Part shown: piece by piece, positions 1,168 through 13,415 of the stretch
How the letters are laid out: each line of letters starts with the position of its first letter
How positions within the stretch are numbered: position 1 is the stretch's first letter
From: a virus
Virus record (IMG/VR): IMGVR_UViG_3300026097_000013
Location: 1-64,000 of that record
DNA: 64,000 nt
Direction: 5' to 3' (one strand)
Position numbers and translations under genes: made by a program
Notes under the pieces: model-generated
What the model saw: the letters and a program-made list of their open reading frames with translations, nothing else
Told to the model about the DNA's origin: nothing
The model's database searches: none

Positions 1168-1746
1168 ATGAGGGTACCTTTTTTTATCATTGTTTGTGCA
1201 GCACTGAGCGGGTGTAACATGAGTATCACAGATGCGTTTCGCGGCAATGGACTGGCAGCACCGCCTGACACACTTACTATAGCAGAGCAGTATGTGGGCA
1301 TGAACGAACATGAGAACCGTGTGACACTTCGAGAGTTTCTTGGAATAGATCCTGTTAGAGTAGAATGGTGTGCTGCGTTTGTTAATTCAGTGCTGGAAGA
1401 AACTGAAGTTGAGTCAACTCGCAGTCTAATGGCACGTTCCTATCTAGATTGGGGAGTAAGCACTGATGAACCTTCGCCTGGAGACATCATGGTGTTTTCA
1501 AGAGGAAACCAAGGCTGGCAAGGACATGTGGGATTCTATGTTGCTACGGTAGGATATAAAAACAACAAGTATTGGGTAGTGCTAGGAGGCAATCAAGACA
1601 ACTCAGTTAGCTATAGACTATACAAAGAAAATCATTGGAGACATCTAGACACTAGGACACTGCCCGATAGCGAAAAGCAAAAGGCACTGGTAGAACGCCG
1701 CTGGTTGTTTGGCGGCATTCCTCTAGATATAATAGAACAAGATTAA
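1168..1746 (+). CDS. NlpC/P60-like (TIGR02594-type) peptidoglycan amidase with predicted lipoprotein signal
   Basis: WCAAFVN (catalytic Cys), PGDIMVF, GHVGF (His), LGGNQ; N-terminal hydrophobic stretch ending in lipobox LSGC. Confidence 0.75.
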   Translation: MRVPFFIIVCAALSGCNMSITDAFRGNGLAAPPDTLTIAEQYVGMNEHENRVTLREFLGIDPVRVEWCAAFVNSVLEETEVESTRSLMARSYLDWGVSTDEPSPGDIMVFSRGNQGWQGHVGFYVATVGYKNNKYWVVLGGNQDNSVSYRLYKENHWRHLDTRTLPDSEKQKALVERRWLFGGIPLDIIEQD

Positions 1747-3179
1747 TCGCCTAGGTTGTTTAGGAAACTGCGCAGCTTGCTTGAATCTGTTTCTGCACGA
1801 ATCTTCTTGACAGGTGCTCCGTCTTCTGGATCATCATTTATGCTGTCTGCGGGTGTTGTAGTTCCCATACCACGTTTTAGATTGGCTACAATTGAACTTC
1901 CACTTGTGCTACCTGCACCTGCTGTGCTTTGTTCGTCGTCTTCACCGATGTCGTAGATGCGCAGTGTGTCTACGTCAAAGCCTAGATCAACCTTTTGTCC
2001 TACACCACTTGAACTACGTGTCTTCATCAACTGGATCTGATAGCGTCCACGCTCACGCATGGCTCTGCTGGTAAAGATACCAATCAAATTGTCTGCTGTG
2101 TTGATCTTTGAAATACCACCTGAGATATGCGAGTGATCAAATTCAATCTCTTCTACACTCGATCTGTTCAACTGCGATGCTGTTACAAAGATTGTGTTAA
2201 GTTCCATTGCTAAGTTGCGTAGCTCTTCCGATACATACTTGTCTTTGACAAACAAGTTCTCTGCTGAAATCTTTTGTCCGATTGGATGCATCAAATCTAG
2301 ATAGTCAATTAACAGCACATCTACTTTCTTGCCTGTCTTGATTTCATACTCTTTTAAGTATGCTCTAACATCGTTTGCGTTCTTGCCTGTGGGCATGTAC
2401 TTGACTTGAAATGCGCCCGACTTCTTACCAATCATCTTGACTTTTAGTTCGACATCTTCGATACTCTTAAAGATATCACGACTTGGAATCTCTGTAGTCA
2501 TAGCATCTACACGCATACTTACTAGTGCTTCTGACAGCTCGAATGTCAAGTACATCACGTTGAGTCCAGCCAGTGCCCAGTTCACACCCATGTTCGCCAT
2601 AAACAAACTCTTACCCGAACCCGAACCGCCTGCAAAGATATTCAGTTCGCCTCGGTTGAATCCGCCAAACAATTTCTTGTCTAGTGCGGGCCAGCCTGTG
2701 CTTACTTGTCCGTTCTTGTCTTTGATGCTTTCGAGTCTGCCTCTAGGGTCAGCAAAGTAGTCTGTGCCTAGATCTTTTTGTAAGCCAATCTGCACAGCCT
2801 GCTTGACTAGATCTTCACACGCACCGTACTCGCCAGACTCTAGTAGGTCTGCACTTTTAAGAATAGCTGCTTCCAGTGCTTTGTGTTTAGAGAACGTTTC
2901 AAAGTCCTGCAACAACCAGTCATAATGATTCTCTGCTAGCTGCCCAGGATCTTTAAGATCAGTTTGTGTAGCAGCGTTCACCATATCAAATGTAGGCAGT
3001 GCATTATGCTCTTCTACATATTGTTTGATAAACTTAGCGGGTTCTACCAAACGCCTATCAAATGTATTAGGATCAAACACACCCTGACAGCGTACAAAGC
3101 TCTCAGCGTCTGTCATAAACATCTCTAGATATACTTTTTGTATATCATACCCATAGTCTGTGTTTTGTCTTGTGCTCAT
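1743..3179 (-). CDS. dnaB: Replicative DnaB-like helicase (T4 gp41-like)
   Basis: Walker A GGSGSGKS, Walker B LLIDYLD, TASQLNR, upstream primase. Confidence 0.93.
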   Translation of the reverse strand: MSTRQNTDYGYDIQKVYLEMFMTDAESFVRCQGVFDPNTFDRRLVEPAKFIKQYVEEHNALPTFDMVNAATQTDLKDPGQLAENHYDWLLQDFETFSKHKALEAAILKSADLLESGEYGACEDLVKQAVQIGLQKDLGTDYFADPRGRLESIKDKNGQVSTGWPALDKKLFGGFNRGELNIFAGGSGSGKSLFMANMGVNWALAGLNVMYLTFELSEALVSMRVDAMTTEIPSRDIFKSIEDVELKVKMIGKKSGAFQVKYMPTGKNANDVRAYLKEYEIKTGKKVDVLLIDYLDLMHPIGQKISAENLFVKDKYVSEELRNLAMELNTIFVTASQLNRSSVEEIEFDHSHISGGISKINTADNLIGIFTSRAMRERGRYQIQLMKTRSSSGVGQKVDLGFDVDTLRIYDIGEDDEQSTAGAGSTSGSSIVANLKRGMGTTTPADSINDDPEDGAPVKKIRAETDSSKLRSFLNNLGD

Positions 3180-3214
3180 GTGTTGATTATACTACCTATG
3201 CCATTTGTTGTCAA
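3180..3214 (-). promoter_or_regulatory. Sigma70-type promoter, leaderless geometry (helicase)
   Basis: TTGACA-17 bp-TATAAT-6 nt-ATG. Confidence 0.85.
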
Positions 3215-4157
3215 TTGATATTCGTTGTTGAGTTTTAGCAAGAACTGCACCTACGCAGCTTCCAGGGTCACCTGGGTTCTTGGGAATATGTACATCATGC
3301 CACATAACCCTAATTAAATCCACAGCTTGCCGGTTCATTGCGCCGCCGCCTGCTAGTGCCACATACTTAGACTCGGTAAGAGCATACGCACATCTAGACA
3401 AGTTTAGCAAGCAGTATTCAAATACTTTTTGTGTAGCTGCTGCAATGTCATACATGTCTTGTTCAGTAGTAAGCTCAGGTCGCCACCAACTGCATCCCCT
3501 GTGCAGATTTTCTCGCATTGAAATCTTAGGGTTGAAACCCATACCTTCTGTGCTAACTAATTCTTCGAGTATGGGCATGAAGAATCTATGGGCATCACCC
3601 TTGGCGCCCCATTGGGCTACTAGGTATTCGTCACGCTGTGCTACTAGCCCTATACGCTGTGTCATAGCACTATAAAAAAGTCCTAGGCTATGCGGATACC
3701 CTTGGCTATGTACCTTCTTGAGTTTGCCGTTCTTACCGTGCCATATGGTTAGGGTTTCGAACTCTCCTATGCTGTCTAGGCATATCACAGCACAATCATC
3801 ATGGGGCTGTGTGTAGTATGCGTAGGCTGCATGGCTAAGATGATGCTGGGTATAACGAATAGGAAGATCGCACAAGTGATGTTGCTCGAGATATTTGCGA
3901 ATATTATTTTCTTTGCCCAACCAGCCTTGTCCTGCCCAAAACTGCCTCAGTGTTTTAAGCACGGGTCGTTCATACCATACAATTTCTTGAGGATACCCGT
4001 GGCTGTTAATAGCGTGTTGTATCATCTCTTCGTTAGGGTGCGGGTCGTTAGGTATGCCGCTAAAGTCTTTAGCTAGTGCTGCCCATAACAACTCGTTGTC
4101 GTTGAATACTGCAATACTTGCGTCGTGGCTATTGCCTACCATTCCCCATGTTATCAT
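3192..4157 (-). CDS. Carbamoyltransferase N-terminal (Kae1-like) domain only
   Basis: SHDASIAV, HHLSHAA, LDSIGE, SLGLFYS, GDPGSCVGA; lacks the C-terminal GPRALG/NTSFN domain. Confidence 0.8.
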   Translation of the reverse strand: MITWGMVGNSHDASIAVFNDNELLWAALAKDFSGIPNDPHPNEEMIQHAINSHGYPQEIVWYERPVLKTLRQFWAGQGWLGKENNIRKYLEQHHLCDLPIRYTQHHLSHAAYAYYTQPHDDCAVICLDSIGEFETLTIWHGKNGKLKKVHSQGYPHSLGLFYSAMTQRIGLVAQRDEYLVAQWGAKGDAHRFFMPILEELVSTEGMGFNPKISMRENLHRGCSWWRPELTTEQDMYDIAAATQKVFEYCLLNLSRCAYALTESKYVALAGGGAMNRQAVDLIRVMWHDVHIPKNPGDPGSCVGAVLAKTQQRISIDNKWHR

Positions 4158-4174
4158 ATTATATTCTTCTTAAT

Positions 4175-4699
4175 TTAAAATTGTTTATAAACTTCTATAT
4201 TAGTGTTAAACCCTATAATAGTTTTTCGAGCTCCGGTGTTGGGTCTTGATCCATGTGCTAAAAATGAAGGAAACGTAATTATGTCGCCTTCATTAACATC
4301 AACTTTGTATTCAGTGCCCATGTAAGAAAAACTAGTCTTAGGAGAATCGTCGCCTAACTCGATATACATAACATTTGAATATATACTGCTTTCATGTACA
4401 TGCCATAAATGAAAATCTCCTGCTTCGTATTGCTGATGCCACACTGTAGATGTAGTAACGCTTCGTAGCTGTAACTTTTCTTTTAATATTTCATTATGCC
4501 TGTTAATCTCTGGAAAAACAATATTCAAATATGGCCTATGTTCATCAGGGTTAATATGCCAATCTGTATTAGAAAGTCGTTGTCCCGGACCGTCAATGCT
4601 GTATCGAGTCATTGAACTAATAGCAGAAAGTGTACTATTTTTAACAACTTCAAAGTTTGGTATTTTTGTAATATGCACAAGGCTTTCTATATTAATCAT
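4175..4699 (-). CDS. Putative 2OG-Fe(II) oxygenase (H-x-H type)
   Basis: QQYEAGDFHLWHVH, EGDIITFPSFLAHGS, RKTIIGFN. Confidence 0.75.
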   Translation of the reverse strand: MINIESLVHITKIPNFEVVKNSTLSAISSMTRYSIDGPGQRLSNTDWHINPDEHRPYLNIVFPEINRHNEILKEKLQLRSVTTSTVWHQQYEAGDFHLWHVHESSIYSNVMYIELGDDSPKTSFSYMGTEYKVDVNEGDIITFPSFLAHGSRPNTGARKTIIGFNTNIEVYKQF

Positions 4700-4709
4700 A
4701 TTTTCACTT

Positions 4710-4871
4710 TCATTTGTAAATAAACGGGTCTTTTTTGCGTAGCTCTTTAAGCTTCTTTCTAAAACGTAGTTCTTCAGTAATGCGTGTATATGGCCAAATA
4801 ATAATTCTCCATACTACCATGACTGCAAATACTATTGCTAACCAAATTTTATTTAAAATGTTTAAAACCAT
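4710..4871 (-). CDS. Small membrane-anchored protein (53 aa, below ORF-track cutoff)
   Basis: MVLNILNKIWLAIVFAVMVVWRIIIWPYTRITEELRFRKKLKELRKKDPFIYK; ATG overlaps the primase 3' end; fills the gap between genes. Confidence 0.65.
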   Translation of the reverse strand: MVLNILNKIWLAIVFAVMVVWRIIIWPYTRITEELRFRKKLKELRKKDPFIYK

Positions 4872-5857
4872 TTTTTCATCCTCAGTTTAATTTTAAGTGA
4901 CGAGCTTTCTGCTGCACTAGCTATGCTATACAATGTATATAATCTACCGTACTTAGCAACTGCATCACCAATGTCGTTGATGTCTGAATCCCAGTTGGGC
5001 ATACTGACTTGCCAGCCTAGATCCATTGCTTGTTCTACTAATTTTTTACCTGCACTATCTCTGTCAGGAACAACGATAATATCTTTGTTAAGTCTATTTA
5101 ACAGCATTGCTTGTTGTTCGCCTACTTCGGATCCTAATAGTGCGCAGCCTTCTACATGTATAGCGTCCAATGGACCTTCGCATACTATACAAAATGCTTT
5201 TTGCCAACGCTGCTCATCAAGCCCATATACGTATCCAGGTTGACTTTCTGTAAGATATTTTGCTTTTGTTTCAGACTTAACCGTACGAGCAGTCCAACCT
5301 ACAATGCGTTCTTCATAATAGAAAGGAATAATAAATCTATCTCGATACCCTAATTTTGTAGTCCAATAGTAGTTTGTATCATCTAAATTAAGATCACGAG
5401 ATGCCATGTACTGGACTACTTCGATAAAATTATTAAAGCCTAGGTTGTGTTCATTATAATCTGGAATATCTTGTATCCGTACTGCATCTTCAGGCAACTG
5501 CACTGTTGAAAACTCTGGTATTTCGACCAAGTGTTCTTTAGCTTCGATACCTTCATTCATTCTAAGAATATCTAGTGCTAGTTTGTTAATATTGTCATCC
5601 GGTACGTTGAGCCACTCTAACAACTTGCGAAGTTTAAATGTCATGTGTCTTCCAGGTTGCCATCCTGTTTTAAATCCGCAGTTAAAGCAATGAAAACTTA
5701 CAACATCACCTTCTTGTATTAAGCCGCCGCGTTGCTTAGTATCTCGTGTTTCGTTATTGTGTACGCAACAGGGAGCATCAAAGCTAGTCCATCCACTAGG
5801 AGTAGTTTTTCGCTTTGCTGGCAAGTGTGCTGCGATTGTGTCAGATACGATGCTCAT
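4862..5857 (-). CDS. dnaG: DNA primase (zinc-binding + TOPRIM)
   Basis: CC..H and CFNC zinc ligands, CEGPLDA, PDRD, DINDIGDA. Confidence 0.9.
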   Translation of the reverse strand: MSIVSDTIAAHLPAKRKTTPSGWTSFDAPCCVHNNETRDTKQRGGLIQEGDVVSFHCFNCGFKTGWQPGRHMTFKLRKLLEWLNVPDDNINKLALDILRMNEGIEAKEHLVEIPEFSTVQLPEDAVRIQDIPDYNEHNLGFNNFIEVVQYMASRDLNLDDTNYYWTTKLGYRDRFIIPFYYEERIVGWTARTVKSETKAKYLTESQPGYVYGLDEQRWQKAFCIVCEGPLDAIHVEGCALLGSEVGEQQAMLLNRLNKDIIVVPDRDSAGKKLVEQAMDLGWQVSMPNWDSDINDIGDAVAKYGRLYTLYSIASAAESSSLKIKLRMKKWF

Positions 5858-5892
5858 AACATTATAATAGCACCGTGGAGAAGTTTTGTCAA
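5858..5892 (-). promoter_or_regulatory. Sigma70-type promoter, leaderless geometry (primase)
   Basis: TTGACA-17 bp-TATTAT-6 nt-ATG. Confidence 0.8.
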
Positions 5893-6704: not shown

Positions 6705-7076
6705 ATGTTAACAAAAGATATTGAAGAAAAATTTCCATTCCTTAGCGTAGTTACGTATGGTGGCAACGAGTATATCGGCATCGTTATTAATCAAGATAAT
6801 GTCGTAACTAGTATGTATGTGTATACTGATATAAGAGAAATAGATGCACAACGTCGATTTTTAGAATTAGGTGAAGTATGGTGGTGGGAATCAAATAGAA
6901 TGATTCCTATTAATATTTTTCTTAAGGACGAAATGAACGAGTTCAAACCGTGCATAGTAACTATGAATACAAAAGATGTTAGAGTTACAATTGGGCCTTG
7001 TGTAAATTTAAATAATTTATCAGTAAAAAGAATAAAACGTAAAAGTGTACAGCTAGTTCGTAGACCTAAGAACTAA
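6705..7076 (+). CDS. Hypothetical protein
   Basis: 123-aa ORF filling the gap, opposite strand to its neighbours; WWWESNRMIPINIF motif. Confidence 0.65.
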   Translation: MLTKDIEEKFPFLSVVTYGGNEYIGIVINQDNVVTSMYVYTDIREIDAQRRFLELGEVWWWESNRMIPINIFLKDEMNEFKPCIVTMNTKDVRVTIGPCVNLNNLSVKRIKRKSVQLVRRPKN

Positions 7077-7626
7077 TTTGTTCACATAGTAAATTCATGT
7101 GTACTACACACGCCATAGCATAAGAAATGGCATGTGCTTTCTTAAAATAGTATGCACCGTCTTCAGGCTTCTTCCATATTTCTTCGTTTATCGTTTGCCA
7201 AGTTTCGTTGACAAGATGGCGTTTCGCAGGCCGTATCATCGCTAGTACTGCTGCTAACTGCTCCACTGATTGTGGCTTTAATTGTTTTAACAAATCGCTG
7301 TGCCCGTTTAAGTGGAATACCTGATCTGAAAATTCTTTGTGCTCCAAAAGTTGCCATAGTGGTTCTGTATCCATTAATCTATTTAAATGTTCTTCATTTT
7401 CGACATCATTGTATATACTAACATTCAAAAAGTCAAGTTTAAAATAGCCTCGGTCTTCTGCTGTCTTGTAGTCAATAGTAGCAATTTCATTAAAAGGATT
7501 GTGAGGGATCTCAGTCACATAAACACCAGTGTTGTGTTTTTTACCTGTATCAAGTTTTGCCACGCGATGCTGTATTTTGTTTAAGATAATATCTCTGTTT
7601 GAAAAATCTATATCGATATCAGGCAT
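7066..7626 (-). CDS. dnaE: Minimal DNA polymerase III alpha (C-family) catalytic-core fragment
   Basis: Collinear DnaE motifs PDIDIDF, KHNTGVY, GYFKLDFLN, QVFHL, LAAVLAMIRP, YYFKKAHAISYA in only 186 aa; SD GGAGG. Confidence 0.85.
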   Translation of the reverse strand: MPDIDIDFSNRDIILNKIQHRVAKLDTGKKHNTGVYVTEIPHNPFNEIATIDYKTAEDRGYFKLDFLNVSIYNDVENEEHLNRLMDTEPLWQLLEHKEFSDQVFHLNGHSDLLKQLKPQSVEQLAAVLAMIRPAKRHLVNETWQTINEEIWKKPEDGAYYFKKAHAISYAMACVVHMNLLCEQISS

Positions 7627-7798
7627 TTTTTATTTTCCTCCAAAAGAATCCCTTGCGTGAAAGAGGACGCTGTCCTATATACTCTTCGCCTGTTTCCAAG
7701 TCAACTAACTTATATTTACTAGGACACTTAGTACGAACTTCCATAGTAATAGGAAATTCGTATTCAGGTGCTTTTGTTCCGTCGATCAGTTTACGCAA
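7619..7798 (-). CDS. Small hypothetical protein (59 aa, TTG start)
   Basis: (M)RKLIDGTKAPEYEFPITMEVRTKCPSKYKLVDLETGEEYIG...; GGAG SD; overlaps the def stop and the dnaE start. Confidence 0.65.
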   Translation of the reverse strand: MRKLIDGTKAPEYEFPITMEVRTKCPSKYKLVDLETGEEYIGQRPLSRKGFFWRKIKNA

Positions 7799-8288
7799 AT
7801 GCTTTCTCCAGCTTACGTGCTTTCTTTTGTGCCATGTCCCATTTAAGTTTACTTACACGATCTTTGATGGTAATACCTAGTAGATGATCAAGCTCATGTA
7901 AAAATACTTTAGCACTATAGCCTTCGATCTTTACTACACACTCTTTTAAATTTTCGTCGTACCATTGTGCAAGTATTTCTTTAGGACGTTTTACTTTTAC
8001 AAATGTATTAGGAAAACTTAAACATCCTTCTACGTCATATTGTGTGTCTTTGGTATATTGTAAAATTGTTGGATTAATACAAATAGTAGAGTTTTCTTTT
8101 GAATCTCCAAATACAAATACCTTAGCGTCTAGTCCAATTTGATTAGCTGCTAGACCAATTCCGCCGTGTTGTAGCATTAGATCTACCATTTGCTCTTTTA
8201 GTTCTAGAGGGTCGAAACCAGGATCTTCTAGATTAACATCTTTGACTTCGCGCTCTAAAATTTCATCGGGGTAGTATACTAATTTCAT
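7791..8288 (-). CDS. def: Peptide deformylase
   Basis: All three motifs: GIGLAANQIG, EGCLS, HELDH. Confidence 0.95.
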   Translation of the reverse strand: MKLVYYPDEILEREVKDVNLEDPGFDPLELKEQMVDLMLQHGGIGLAANQIGLDAKVFVFGDSKENSTICINPTILQYTKDTQYDVEGCLSFPNTFVKVKRPKEILAQWYDENLKECVVKIEGYSAKVFLHELDHLLGITIKDRVSKLKWDMAQKKARKLEKAFA

Positions 8289-11951: not shown

Positions 11952-13415
11952 TTAATTCCAATCCACTTTTTCTATTGTAAATGGATACTGCGCCTCTTTG
12001 TAAAACTTTTTACGATGAGTAAGGTGCCGCTTCGCAAACTTACATGTCGATGTAAGGTCCCATATTTGAACGAAGTCTTTGTCTTTTGCCTTTCGAACGC
12101 CTCTACCAATTGACTGGATAACTCTTACAAAACTCTTACCAGGTTCAAGCAACACAAGATTAAAAATACGTGGAATGTTTAGTCCAACAGCCGCAACACC
12201 GTATGTAGCAATAATTACTTCATTAGTGCCTTCACGGATTGTGTCATACGTTTCTTTTCTGTCTTTGTTCTTTACAGCGCCGCTTACAAATGTGCTGCCT
12301 GGAATAAGTTCTGCTAGTGCTTCACCTGCACTAATTCTATCTACTAGTATAAGTGTGTTGCCTGATTCTTTTACTGTGTTTAATAATTTGCCTAAGTATT
12401 CTAATCTTGCCTGATTTGTAACAAGATATTTTAATTCTTCTTGATATCCTGAATGTGATACCGTGTCTATTAGCTGTACAATATTAACGTGACATTGTGC
12501 TAATACACCTTTGTCCTGTAGTTCCTTAGCACTAATCTGACCGATGACAGGACCTAAGCTAGCGTGAATACTTTCAAATTCAAACTTCTCTTTAGGCACT
12601 GTGCCAGTTAGACCCCATCGGATCGGAGCGTTACGTAGGTTGCGTGTGAGCAGGTTCTTTAGAACTTCTGCTTTAGCTTGGTGTACTTCGTCGACAATAA
12701 TAGTGCTTACACCTTCTAAGAACTCTGCGAGACTTAGTACTGCACTGCCGTCTTTGAACTTCTTGTCTAGAATGTTCAAACTCTGCCATGTACAGATAGT
12801 ATGAGTCTTACCTAGTTGCTTTCTATCGCCGAAGTACACCCCTACGTCGAGACCGCAGTTAATATAGTCCTCTTCTGTTTGTTCTACTAAGCTCTTGTTA
12901 GGAACAATTACAAGACTTCTACCATACGGCTCACTTATGTGTGACAGCGTTGCTGTGGTAATAGTTTTACCTGCGCCAGTAGCAATCTGTTGCAAGCTCT
13001 GTGGATTCTTAATAAAGTTGTTGATTGCTTCTACTTGATAGTCACGCAGAATGATATCTTCGCCTTCTGCTGGATGTCCTGCCGGCCACACAACACCTTG
13101 ATCCTTCCAGTAATTCTCTGTTACTTCTGGAAAGTTGAATTGTACCGGATGACGTCTGTCATCAATGTCGACTATCTGTACCTTGTTTTTAGTGAGTACT
13201 TCTACAATAGTATCAAGGTGATTGACGTAGCCAGTGCCACCGATGCCAAAGAATGCAACCTTGCCGTCCCAACGTCCTAGTTTATACTGAGGCATATATT
13301 TTGCATAAGGCACTTCAAATTTAAGAGCATTTGCCAGTTTGCGGCGTACATCTACATCAAGACCTTCGATCTTAATGTTAACTTCGTCTTCGATAATTAG
13401 TTTACAACTAGCCAT
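11952..13415 (-). CDS. uvsW: SF2 DNA helicase, UvsW-like
   Basis: LRDYQ, ATGAGKT, VDEVH, GLTGT, QSIGRGVR. Confidence 0.9.
   Translation of the reverse strand: MASCKLIIEDEVNIKIEGLDVDVRRKLANALKFEVPYAKYMPQYKLGRWDGKVAFFGIGGTGYVNHLDTIVEVLTKNKVQIVDIDDRRHPVQFNFPEVTENYWKDQGVVWPAGHPAEGEDIILRDYQVEAINNFIKNPQSLQQIATGAGKTITTATLSHISEPYGRSLVIVPNKSLVEQTEEDYINCGLDVGVYFGDRKQLGKTHTICTWQSLNILDKKFKDGSAVLSLAEFLEGVSTIIVDEVHQAKAEVLKNLLTRNLRNAPIRWGLTGTVPKEKFEFESIHASLGPVIGQISAKELQDKGVLAQCHVNIVQLIDTVSHSGYQEELKYLVTNQARLEYLGKLLNTVKESGNTLILVDRISAGEALAELIPGSTFVSGAVKNKDRKETYDTIREGTNEVIIATYGVAAVGLNIPRIFNLVLLEPGKSFVRVIQSIGRGVRKAKDKDFVQIWDLTSTCKFAKRHLTHRKKFYKEAQYPFTIEKVDWN

Follow-up and report, generated by a model that had tools for sequence, protein, structure and literature searches.

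A member of the split minimal DNA polymerase III alpha family in a genome fragment of an uncultured aquatic jumbo phage

Described split polymerases and the gene in the window

A minimal form of DNA polymerase III (Pol III) alpha has been described in group 2.2 jumbo phages, where it is split into two units, the N-terminal one binding NTP and the C-terminal one binding Mg2+ and the template (Iyer et al. 2021, PMC7824862, sections 3.4.1 and 3.5). In these phages, the split minimal Pol III alpha occurs alongside a family B polymerase (PolB) (PMC7824862, Viruses 13:63). Iyer et al. suggest that it cooperates with PolB on one strand or, alternatively, that it serves in repair (PMC7824862). Full-text literature searches retrieved no biochemical study of any family member, and a 2026 review of jumbo phages makes no mention of the split minimal Pol III alpha family. 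Some GenBank records label such genes "DNA polymerase" or "DnaE-like DNA polymerase III alpha."

The window analyzed here comprises the initial 64 kb of an IMG/VR record of 120,484 bp, the completeness of which is ~33% (CheckV). On the minus strand, at 7066 to 7626, it encodes a protein of 186 residues (N terminus, MPDIDIDF), referred to below as the C unit. The first-pass annotation, made from the sequence alone, had read this protein as one part of a split, miniaturized polymerase or nucleotidyltransferase. The idea of a split enzyme is not new, having been stated by Iyer et al. in 2021 (PMC7824862, section 3.4.1), and the gene in the window is a further member of the C-terminal family described computationally in 2021. 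Assignment to the split minimal Pol III alpha family as a whole is, in our judgment, very likely correct; we are only slightly less sure that the gene represents the C-terminal unit of the two-gene minimal Pol III alpha found in jumbo phages of group 2.2 (T4-like core).

The C unit resembles the group 2.2 C-terminal unit in its size, in its start at the DxD motif, in its content (one palm half and the template-binding fingers only), and in its encoding by a stand-alone gene. The genomic setting is also alike, namely a jumbo phage with a T4-like core whose relatives carry a distant N-terminal unit (N unit) and a family B polymerase. Nothing essential differs between the two; the window copy comes from an uncultured aquatic lineage.

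Profile searches placed nearly the entire protein within one family. The C unit matched phrog_11778 ("DNA polymerase") with an E value of 1.9e-62, residues 3 to 184 aligning with positions 8 to 195 of the 197-position profile. Its only Pfam match was sub-threshold, to the fingers family PF17657 (E = 0.004), and its match to phrog_405, a full-length Pol III alpha family, was partial (profile positions 578 to 678). Among PDB sequences, four collinear pieces of the C unit matched M. tuberculosis DnaE1 (PDB entry 5lew), at 413 to 423, 567 to 664, and 774 to 788. Identity amounted to ~50% with the copies from PA5oct, Atu_ph07, and Phosso and to ~37% with Rak2-like copies. A megablast search with the 8 kb around the gene retrieved no near-identical isolate phage.

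A Shine-Dalgarno-like GGAGG, read from the sequence, lies at 7637 to 7641 on the minus strand, 10 nt 5' of the ATG at 7626. An in-frame TAA stands two codons 5' of this ATG, and the open frame comprises 187 codons. Because of the GGAGG box and the upstream stop codon, we regard the start at DxD as genuine and not as the product of a mis-called or frameshifted longer gene. The earlier observation that the protein begins at DxD, without the GxGRGS segment, is thus borne out. A scan for promoters and terminators around the C unit gene gave no more than expected by chance.

Catalytic residues, fold, and missing domains

For E. coli numbering, dnaE was read from MG1655, and the motifs were located there. 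On the DxD side, D3, D5, D7, H31, and G34 of the C unit are equivalent to D401, D403, D405, H511, and G514 of E. coli DnaE; in the remainder of the protein, K63, D65, R132-P133, K162, and H165 are equivalent to K553, D555, R639-P640, K758, and H760. By this motif mapping, the three catalytic Asp equivalents and the FxKxH motif are present in order, and the residue assignments of the first-pass annotation proved correct. Conservation was assessed in a family alignment of 73 full-length representatives with 31 to 56% identity to the C unit query. Five residues (D3, D5, K63, D65, and P133) are invariant in all members (73/73), and a further seven (D7, H31, G34, R132, K135, K162, and H165) are conserved in at least 90% of them.

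An AlphaFold2 (AF2) model of the C unit, calculated with the 73-member alignment, had a mean pLDDT of 97 and a pTM of 0.89. When this model was searched against the PDB with Foldseek, the best 16 matches were without exception C-family polymerases, two of them PolC-range entries and the others Pol III alpha/DnaE, with a best E value of 1.8e-4. The C-family structures compared were those of E. coli (2hnh), Taq (3e0d), M. tuberculosis DnaE1 (5lew), and Geobacillus PolC (3f2b). VIA-align placed 184 of the 186 residues on Taq Pol III alpha 461 to 838 (Z = 10.0; rmsd, 3.6), and the model also fits E. coli alpha 400 to 781 and PolC 971 to 1296. The next unrelated chain reached a Z of only 3.3. The likeness to cellular DnaE and PolC comprises palm and fingers, together with the catalytic triad and the K-x-D, RP, and F-x-K-x-H motifs (Z of 9.4 to 10 over 182 to 184 residues). 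The model thus shows the C unit folding as the second half of the Pol III alpha palm followed by a trimmed fingers domain.

What is missing is equally clear from the model, which covers E. coli 400 to 781 alone; the PHP, thumb, clamp-binding, HhH, OB, and tau-binding regions are absent, in agreement with the first reading of the sequence for PHP, HhH, clamp binding, and OB. From D7 to H31, the C unit has 24 residues, versus 106 in E. coli (D405 to H511). The E. coli thumb reportedly occupies 433 to 510 in the domain limits of Lamers et al. 2006. Judged by this spacing in the sequence, the thumb is essentially deleted. The initial estimate of ~25 residues each for thumb and fingers therefore held for the thumb but not for the fingers, of which ~115 residues are retained (roughly 70 to 186).

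Lacking PHP, thumb, clamp-binding, and OB regions, the C unit is outside cellular DnaE and PolC in an architectural sense. Unlike these enzymes, it also lacks the first half of the palm (encoded by the other gene), ~100 residues of fingers inserts, the distal fingers, the beta-binding motif, and the HhH and tau-binding regions, and it is 186 rather than 1160 aa long.

The N unit partner and natural N-C fusions

The first-pass annotation had predicted a split enzyme with a GxGRGS-bearing partner encoded elsewhere, and precisely such a partner, the N unit, was found in relatives. Whole-genome scans retrieved a separate N unit open reading frame (ORF) in each of Phosso, Paride, and PBECO4; these ORFs match PF07733 at positions ~16 to 97, and the C unit matches the same profile from position 98 onward. 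Each of five further isolate genomes with an N unit contains exactly one C unit (5/5), with E values of 1e-64 to 3e-71 against the family profile; these C units were missed in a first tblastn list and recovered by the profile. In total, one N unit and one C unit occur in all isolate genomes tested (8/8), as separate genes 4 to 224 kb apart. An N unit is also present in two of the five longest IMG/VR relative contigs searched (G002 and G003). The N units are 169 to 177 aa long in Paride, PBECO4, and Phosso and 185 aa long in G002 and G003.

All of these N units terminate in ...GVGRGSSVAS...(E/K)EFL[NKR] followed by the stop codon. This end maps to E. coli G361-S364 through F391-L392-N393, and the C unit begins at the equivalent of P400. 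With the N unit ending at 393 and the C unit starting at 400, only ~six linker residues have therefore been lost between the two.

On the G002 contig, the C unit is found at ~61 kb and the N unit 122 kb downstream of it, at 183.5 kb, with a PolB of 892 aa at 210.8 kb. The corresponding positions on G003 are 6.2 kb for the N unit and 36.5 kb for the PolB. In both of these IMG/VR relatives, the N unit and PolB are >120 kb from the C unit, and the PolB (~890 to 899 aa) lies 27 to 30 kb beyond the N unit. PolB is also encoded by Paride and PBECO4.

In the ~33%-complete 120-kb record itself, neither the N unit nor its conserved downstream neighbor was found by tblastn, HMM, and Pfam searches. A search of the whole record by tblastn and with an HMM built from five N units gave nothing below an E value of 0.2. 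The family B polymerase domains PF00136 and PF03104 also had no match in this ~33%-complete record. Among all ORFs of the record, two G.GRGS-like loops were noted and rejected as chance matches in unrelated proteins. The window and these IMG/VR relatives are collinear in gene order around the C unit. Because the left end of the contig is reached 7 kb downstream of the C unit, the absence of the partner is as expected of a fragment. The search of the full genome for a GxGRGS-bearing ORF and a PolB, put forward at first pass, was thus negative in the record and positive in the relatives. Pairing of the N and C units is demonstrated in relatives and is putative for the present phage.

A small, conserved protein of ~113 to 153 aa with an N-A-R/K-G-D...G-G motif is always encoded directly after the N unit, on the plus strand in the loci concerned (L089, 1759 to 2142; L088, 1762 to 2145; L005, 1761 to 2222; and L007, 1738 to 2079). 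In Yersinia, Erwinia, and Vibrio phages, the next gene after this small protein encodes GroES, which is followed in the Yersinia and Erwinia phages by a clamp-loader subunit (L102 to L104).

The two units also occur as a single polypeptide. An all-against-all search of the representatives identified P0085, a 375-aa protein of which residues 190 to 369 match the C unit and the first half is an N unit with GVGRGSS. Two further fused clusters from other assemblies (P0272 and P0273) are 376 aa long and share 78 to 81% identity. This natural N-C fusion lies at 1066 to 2193 on the plus strand of L092, and the linker measures ~10 residues. P0085 was folded on an alignment (A4) in which the N and C units were verified to lie on the correct halves. 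The preceding alignments, A2 and A3, in which N units had been placed on the C half, were dropped; in A4, two DnaE fragments served as bridges.

The AF2 model of P0085 (pLDDT, 85; pTM, 0.81) fits Pol III alpha at a Z of ~22. The next structural matches were CCA-adding enzyme, Cid1, poly(A) polymerase, and Pol beta, with Z values of 3.5 to 4.2. These Pol-beta-like matches cover residues ~102 to 278 and therefore span the N/C junction near 185; the nucleotidyltransferase fold would thus be built from both units, the C unit alone supplying half of an active site. The Pol-beta-like nucleotidyltransferase superfamily has a G[GS] loop and a metal site of three carboxylates on a single beta-sheet; here the carboxylates are supplied by the C unit, and the GS loop belongs to the partner, as seen in relatives.

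A quick maximum-likelihood tree groups the three fused forms in one clade (support, 100), which is nested within a larger supported clade (95) together with 11 split members that start at DxD. Because the fused forms are nested among split forms, the fusion looks secondary, provided that the root lies outside that clade. Residues 1 to 80 of the P0085 model, the N-terminal region of the N unit, are of low confidence (pLDDT, 49 to 77). Some structural alignments of P0085 reach the PHP region of Pol III alpha, with chain ranges starting from residues 12 to 19, and the modeled N-terminal region could possibly hold a vestigial PHP remnant. In one other apparent fusion, P0001 (335 aa), a C unit is connected with a fragment from the C terminus of a helicase. 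It was rejected as an assembly chimera because the join reads DVYKRQ, which we take to be the translation of the Nextera transposase-adapter sequence.

Gene neighborhood, proposed role, and rival explanations

The C unit gene belongs to a conserved block. Its first part consists of a helicase, phrog_11279, a 159-aa ORF, phrog_11058, a variable insert, and the C unit; it continues with a convergent phrog_11637 ORF, a virion-annotated protein, a primase, and DnaB. The block is kept in marine or aquatic relatives and as far away as the Pseudomonas phage Paride, of the PA5oct group, the Atu_ph07-like Sinorhizobium phage Phosso, and the Rak2-like Escherichia phage PBECO4. In the window, the DNA helicase at the upstream end of the block lies at 11952 to 13415 on the minus strand (phrog_16, E = 1.2e-76); it is 89 to 93% identical in close relatives and about 50% identical in Paride and PBECO4. 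The DNA primase gene is located at 4862 to 5857 (minus strand; phrog_47, E = 1.2e-36, plus Toprim_2) and the gene for the DnaB-like replicative helicase at 1743 to 3179 (minus strand; phrog_19, E = 1.2e-70), both assignments being backed by synteny.

The variable insert, between the phrog_11058 gene and the C unit (7619 to 8288, minus strand), encodes a peptide deformylase and a 59-aa ORF, with successive 8-nt overlaps. The stop of the 59-aa ORF (7619 to 7798, minus strand) and the start of the C unit share 8 nt (ATGCCTGA); the ORF has a weak match to the C-terminal part of phrog_4098 (559 positions; E = 2e-7). It is present in L062 and was not found in L034, L019, and L008; the peptide deformylase is present in L034 and L019 and not in L008 and L062. 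Elsewhere in the region, between primase and DnaB (3192 to 4699, minus strand), half of a Kae1/NodU-like carbamoyltransferase (phrog_1601) is encoded together with a 2OG-Fe(II) oxygenase (phrog_81), and these two may have a role in nucleic-acid modification. The carbamoyltransferase is likewise present in L034, L019, and L008. Just 5' of the primase gene, at 5864 to 5892 on the minus strand, is a near-consensus sigma-70-like promoter (TTGACA/17 nt/TATTAT, with TG).

The convergent neighbor of the C unit, a 123-aa ORF at 6705 to 7076 on the plus strand (phrog_11637, E = 3.4e-33), overlaps the 3' end of the C unit gene by 11 nt. It has the same place and orientation in L034, L062, L019, L008, Phosso, Paride, and PBECO4, adjoins the C unit in every lineage examined, and lies downstream of the fused gene as well (L092, 2185 to 2415). 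Searches of Pfam, PDB sequences, and the ESM Atlas with this ORF gave no match. We consider the phrog_11637 protein a candidate functional partner of the C unit.

In the mechanism we propose, the N and C units would assemble non-covalently into one Pol-beta-like active site, as suggested by the folded model of the natural fusion, which is from a distant clade. The GRGSS loop of the N unit would hold the triphosphate of the dNTP; D3, D5, and D65 of the C unit would hold two Mg2+ ions, and the C unit would also hold the template. In the trimmed fingers, R132, K135, K162, and H165 would contact the incoming nucleotide and the template. The pair would act as a DNA-templated DNA polymerase, which is expected to be distributive and non-proofreading because there is no thumb, PHP/proofreading domain, clamp-binding motif, or OB domain. 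With no thumb, binding of the primer-template may be poor, and templated synthesis is therefore not assured. We think that the N + C pair is likely to be an active DNA polymerase, and it is probably not the main replicase.

The role we prefer is short-patch synthesis at the fork, which could mean that primers made by primase are extended until PolB takes over or could mean gap filling. It is favored because the block that unites the gene with primase and DnaB helicase is fixed and because a T4-type PolB occurs in the phage group. Primer extension specifically is offered as a tentative suggestion. B. subtilis DnaE extends primers and hands off to PolC; it is full length and binds the clamp. The analogy consists in a C-family polymerase without proofreading of its own beside a main replicase, a DnaG-type primase, and a DnaB-type helicase; for the C unit, it is functional only and is drawn from the gene neighborhood. 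More speculative again, and rather unlikely in our view, is a version in which the N + C pair is the smallest known C-family polymerase (~370 aa) and extends primers before PolB, with phrog_11637 as a possible third subunit. The pair would then correspond, on the phage side, to B. subtilis DnaE or eukaryotic Pol alpha, and the phrog_11637 protein could replace the missing thumb or a processivity element.

Other explanations deserve consideration. The thumb, clamp-binding, PHP, and OB regions that a replicase needs are gone, a PolB is already present in the phage group, and the Pol-beta-like fold of the joined units includes many non-polymerase transferases; all of this would suit a non-replicative nucleotidyltransferase on a Pol III alpha scaffold, acting in untemplated addition, in the synthesis of a signaling or modified nucleotide, or in DNA modification. 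However, the Pol III alpha-specific fingers motifs IRP.K and FKK.H are nearly invariant, strong structural matches are all to C-family enzymes (with other nucleotidyltransferases at the low Z values given above for P0085), and the gene is placed between helicases and primase, so that we deem such a function improbable. A further rival is a structural mimic for which catalysis is irrelevant and which, acting alone and without the N unit, would dock on the replisome of host or phage, for instance to redirect partners of host Pol III; in its favor, the C unit adjoins primase and helicase and is small and stably folded by itself in the model. Invariant metal-binding aspartates and K-x-D are hard to explain without catalysis, and the one-to-one co-occurrence and fusion with the N unit argue against acting alone. 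Moreover, the DnaE regions that bind beta, tau, and epsilon, which are reportedly as laid out in the domain map of Lamers et al. 2006, are exactly those absent from the C unit. A mimic is thus highly unlikely.

Decay was raised by the first-pass annotation itself, to be recognized by relaxed selection or by a full-length dnaE in close relatives. A decaying, non-functional remnant of a once full-length phage dnaE would explain why ~190 of >1000 DnaE residues are covered and why no partner is on the contig. Nei-Gojobori dN/dS was calculated for 74 orthologues from IMG/VR loci, using pairs with dS of 0.05 to 1.5 (580 pairs). The median was 0.13 and the maximum 0.29, which indicates purifying selection; for the window C unit and its closest relative, L008 (88% identity), dN was 0.075 and dS 0.82. 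The catalytic triad is invariant, and the AF2 model of the C unit is compact and confident. At 50% identity, the C unit family forms 419 clusters (E ≤ 0.001), and, among the members listed, those of full length are ~180 to 220 aa long and start within ~15 residues of DxD. Finally, a PF07733 search of three isolate and five IMG/VR relative records retrieved no full-length dnaE, the matches consisting of N units and weak C unit matches only. Against these observations, decay is scarcely credible.

If the pair is active, it would define a minimal catalytic core, ~370 residues in size, for the bacterial replicase family and would be a natural polymerase active site assembled from two polypeptides. 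It would also bear on the origin of C-family polymerases and offer enzymologists a compact scaffold. Among giant phages of the environment, the family is very common, and the window copy is one more member, without a partner or a new architecture. The C unit was confirmed at >551 IMG/VR loci. For the N unit, 7,993 clusters at 90% identity were retrieved (E ≤ 0.001); among the best 120 of these 7,993 clusters, nearly all have PF07733, and many are named "DNA polymerase III alpha subunit" by JGI.
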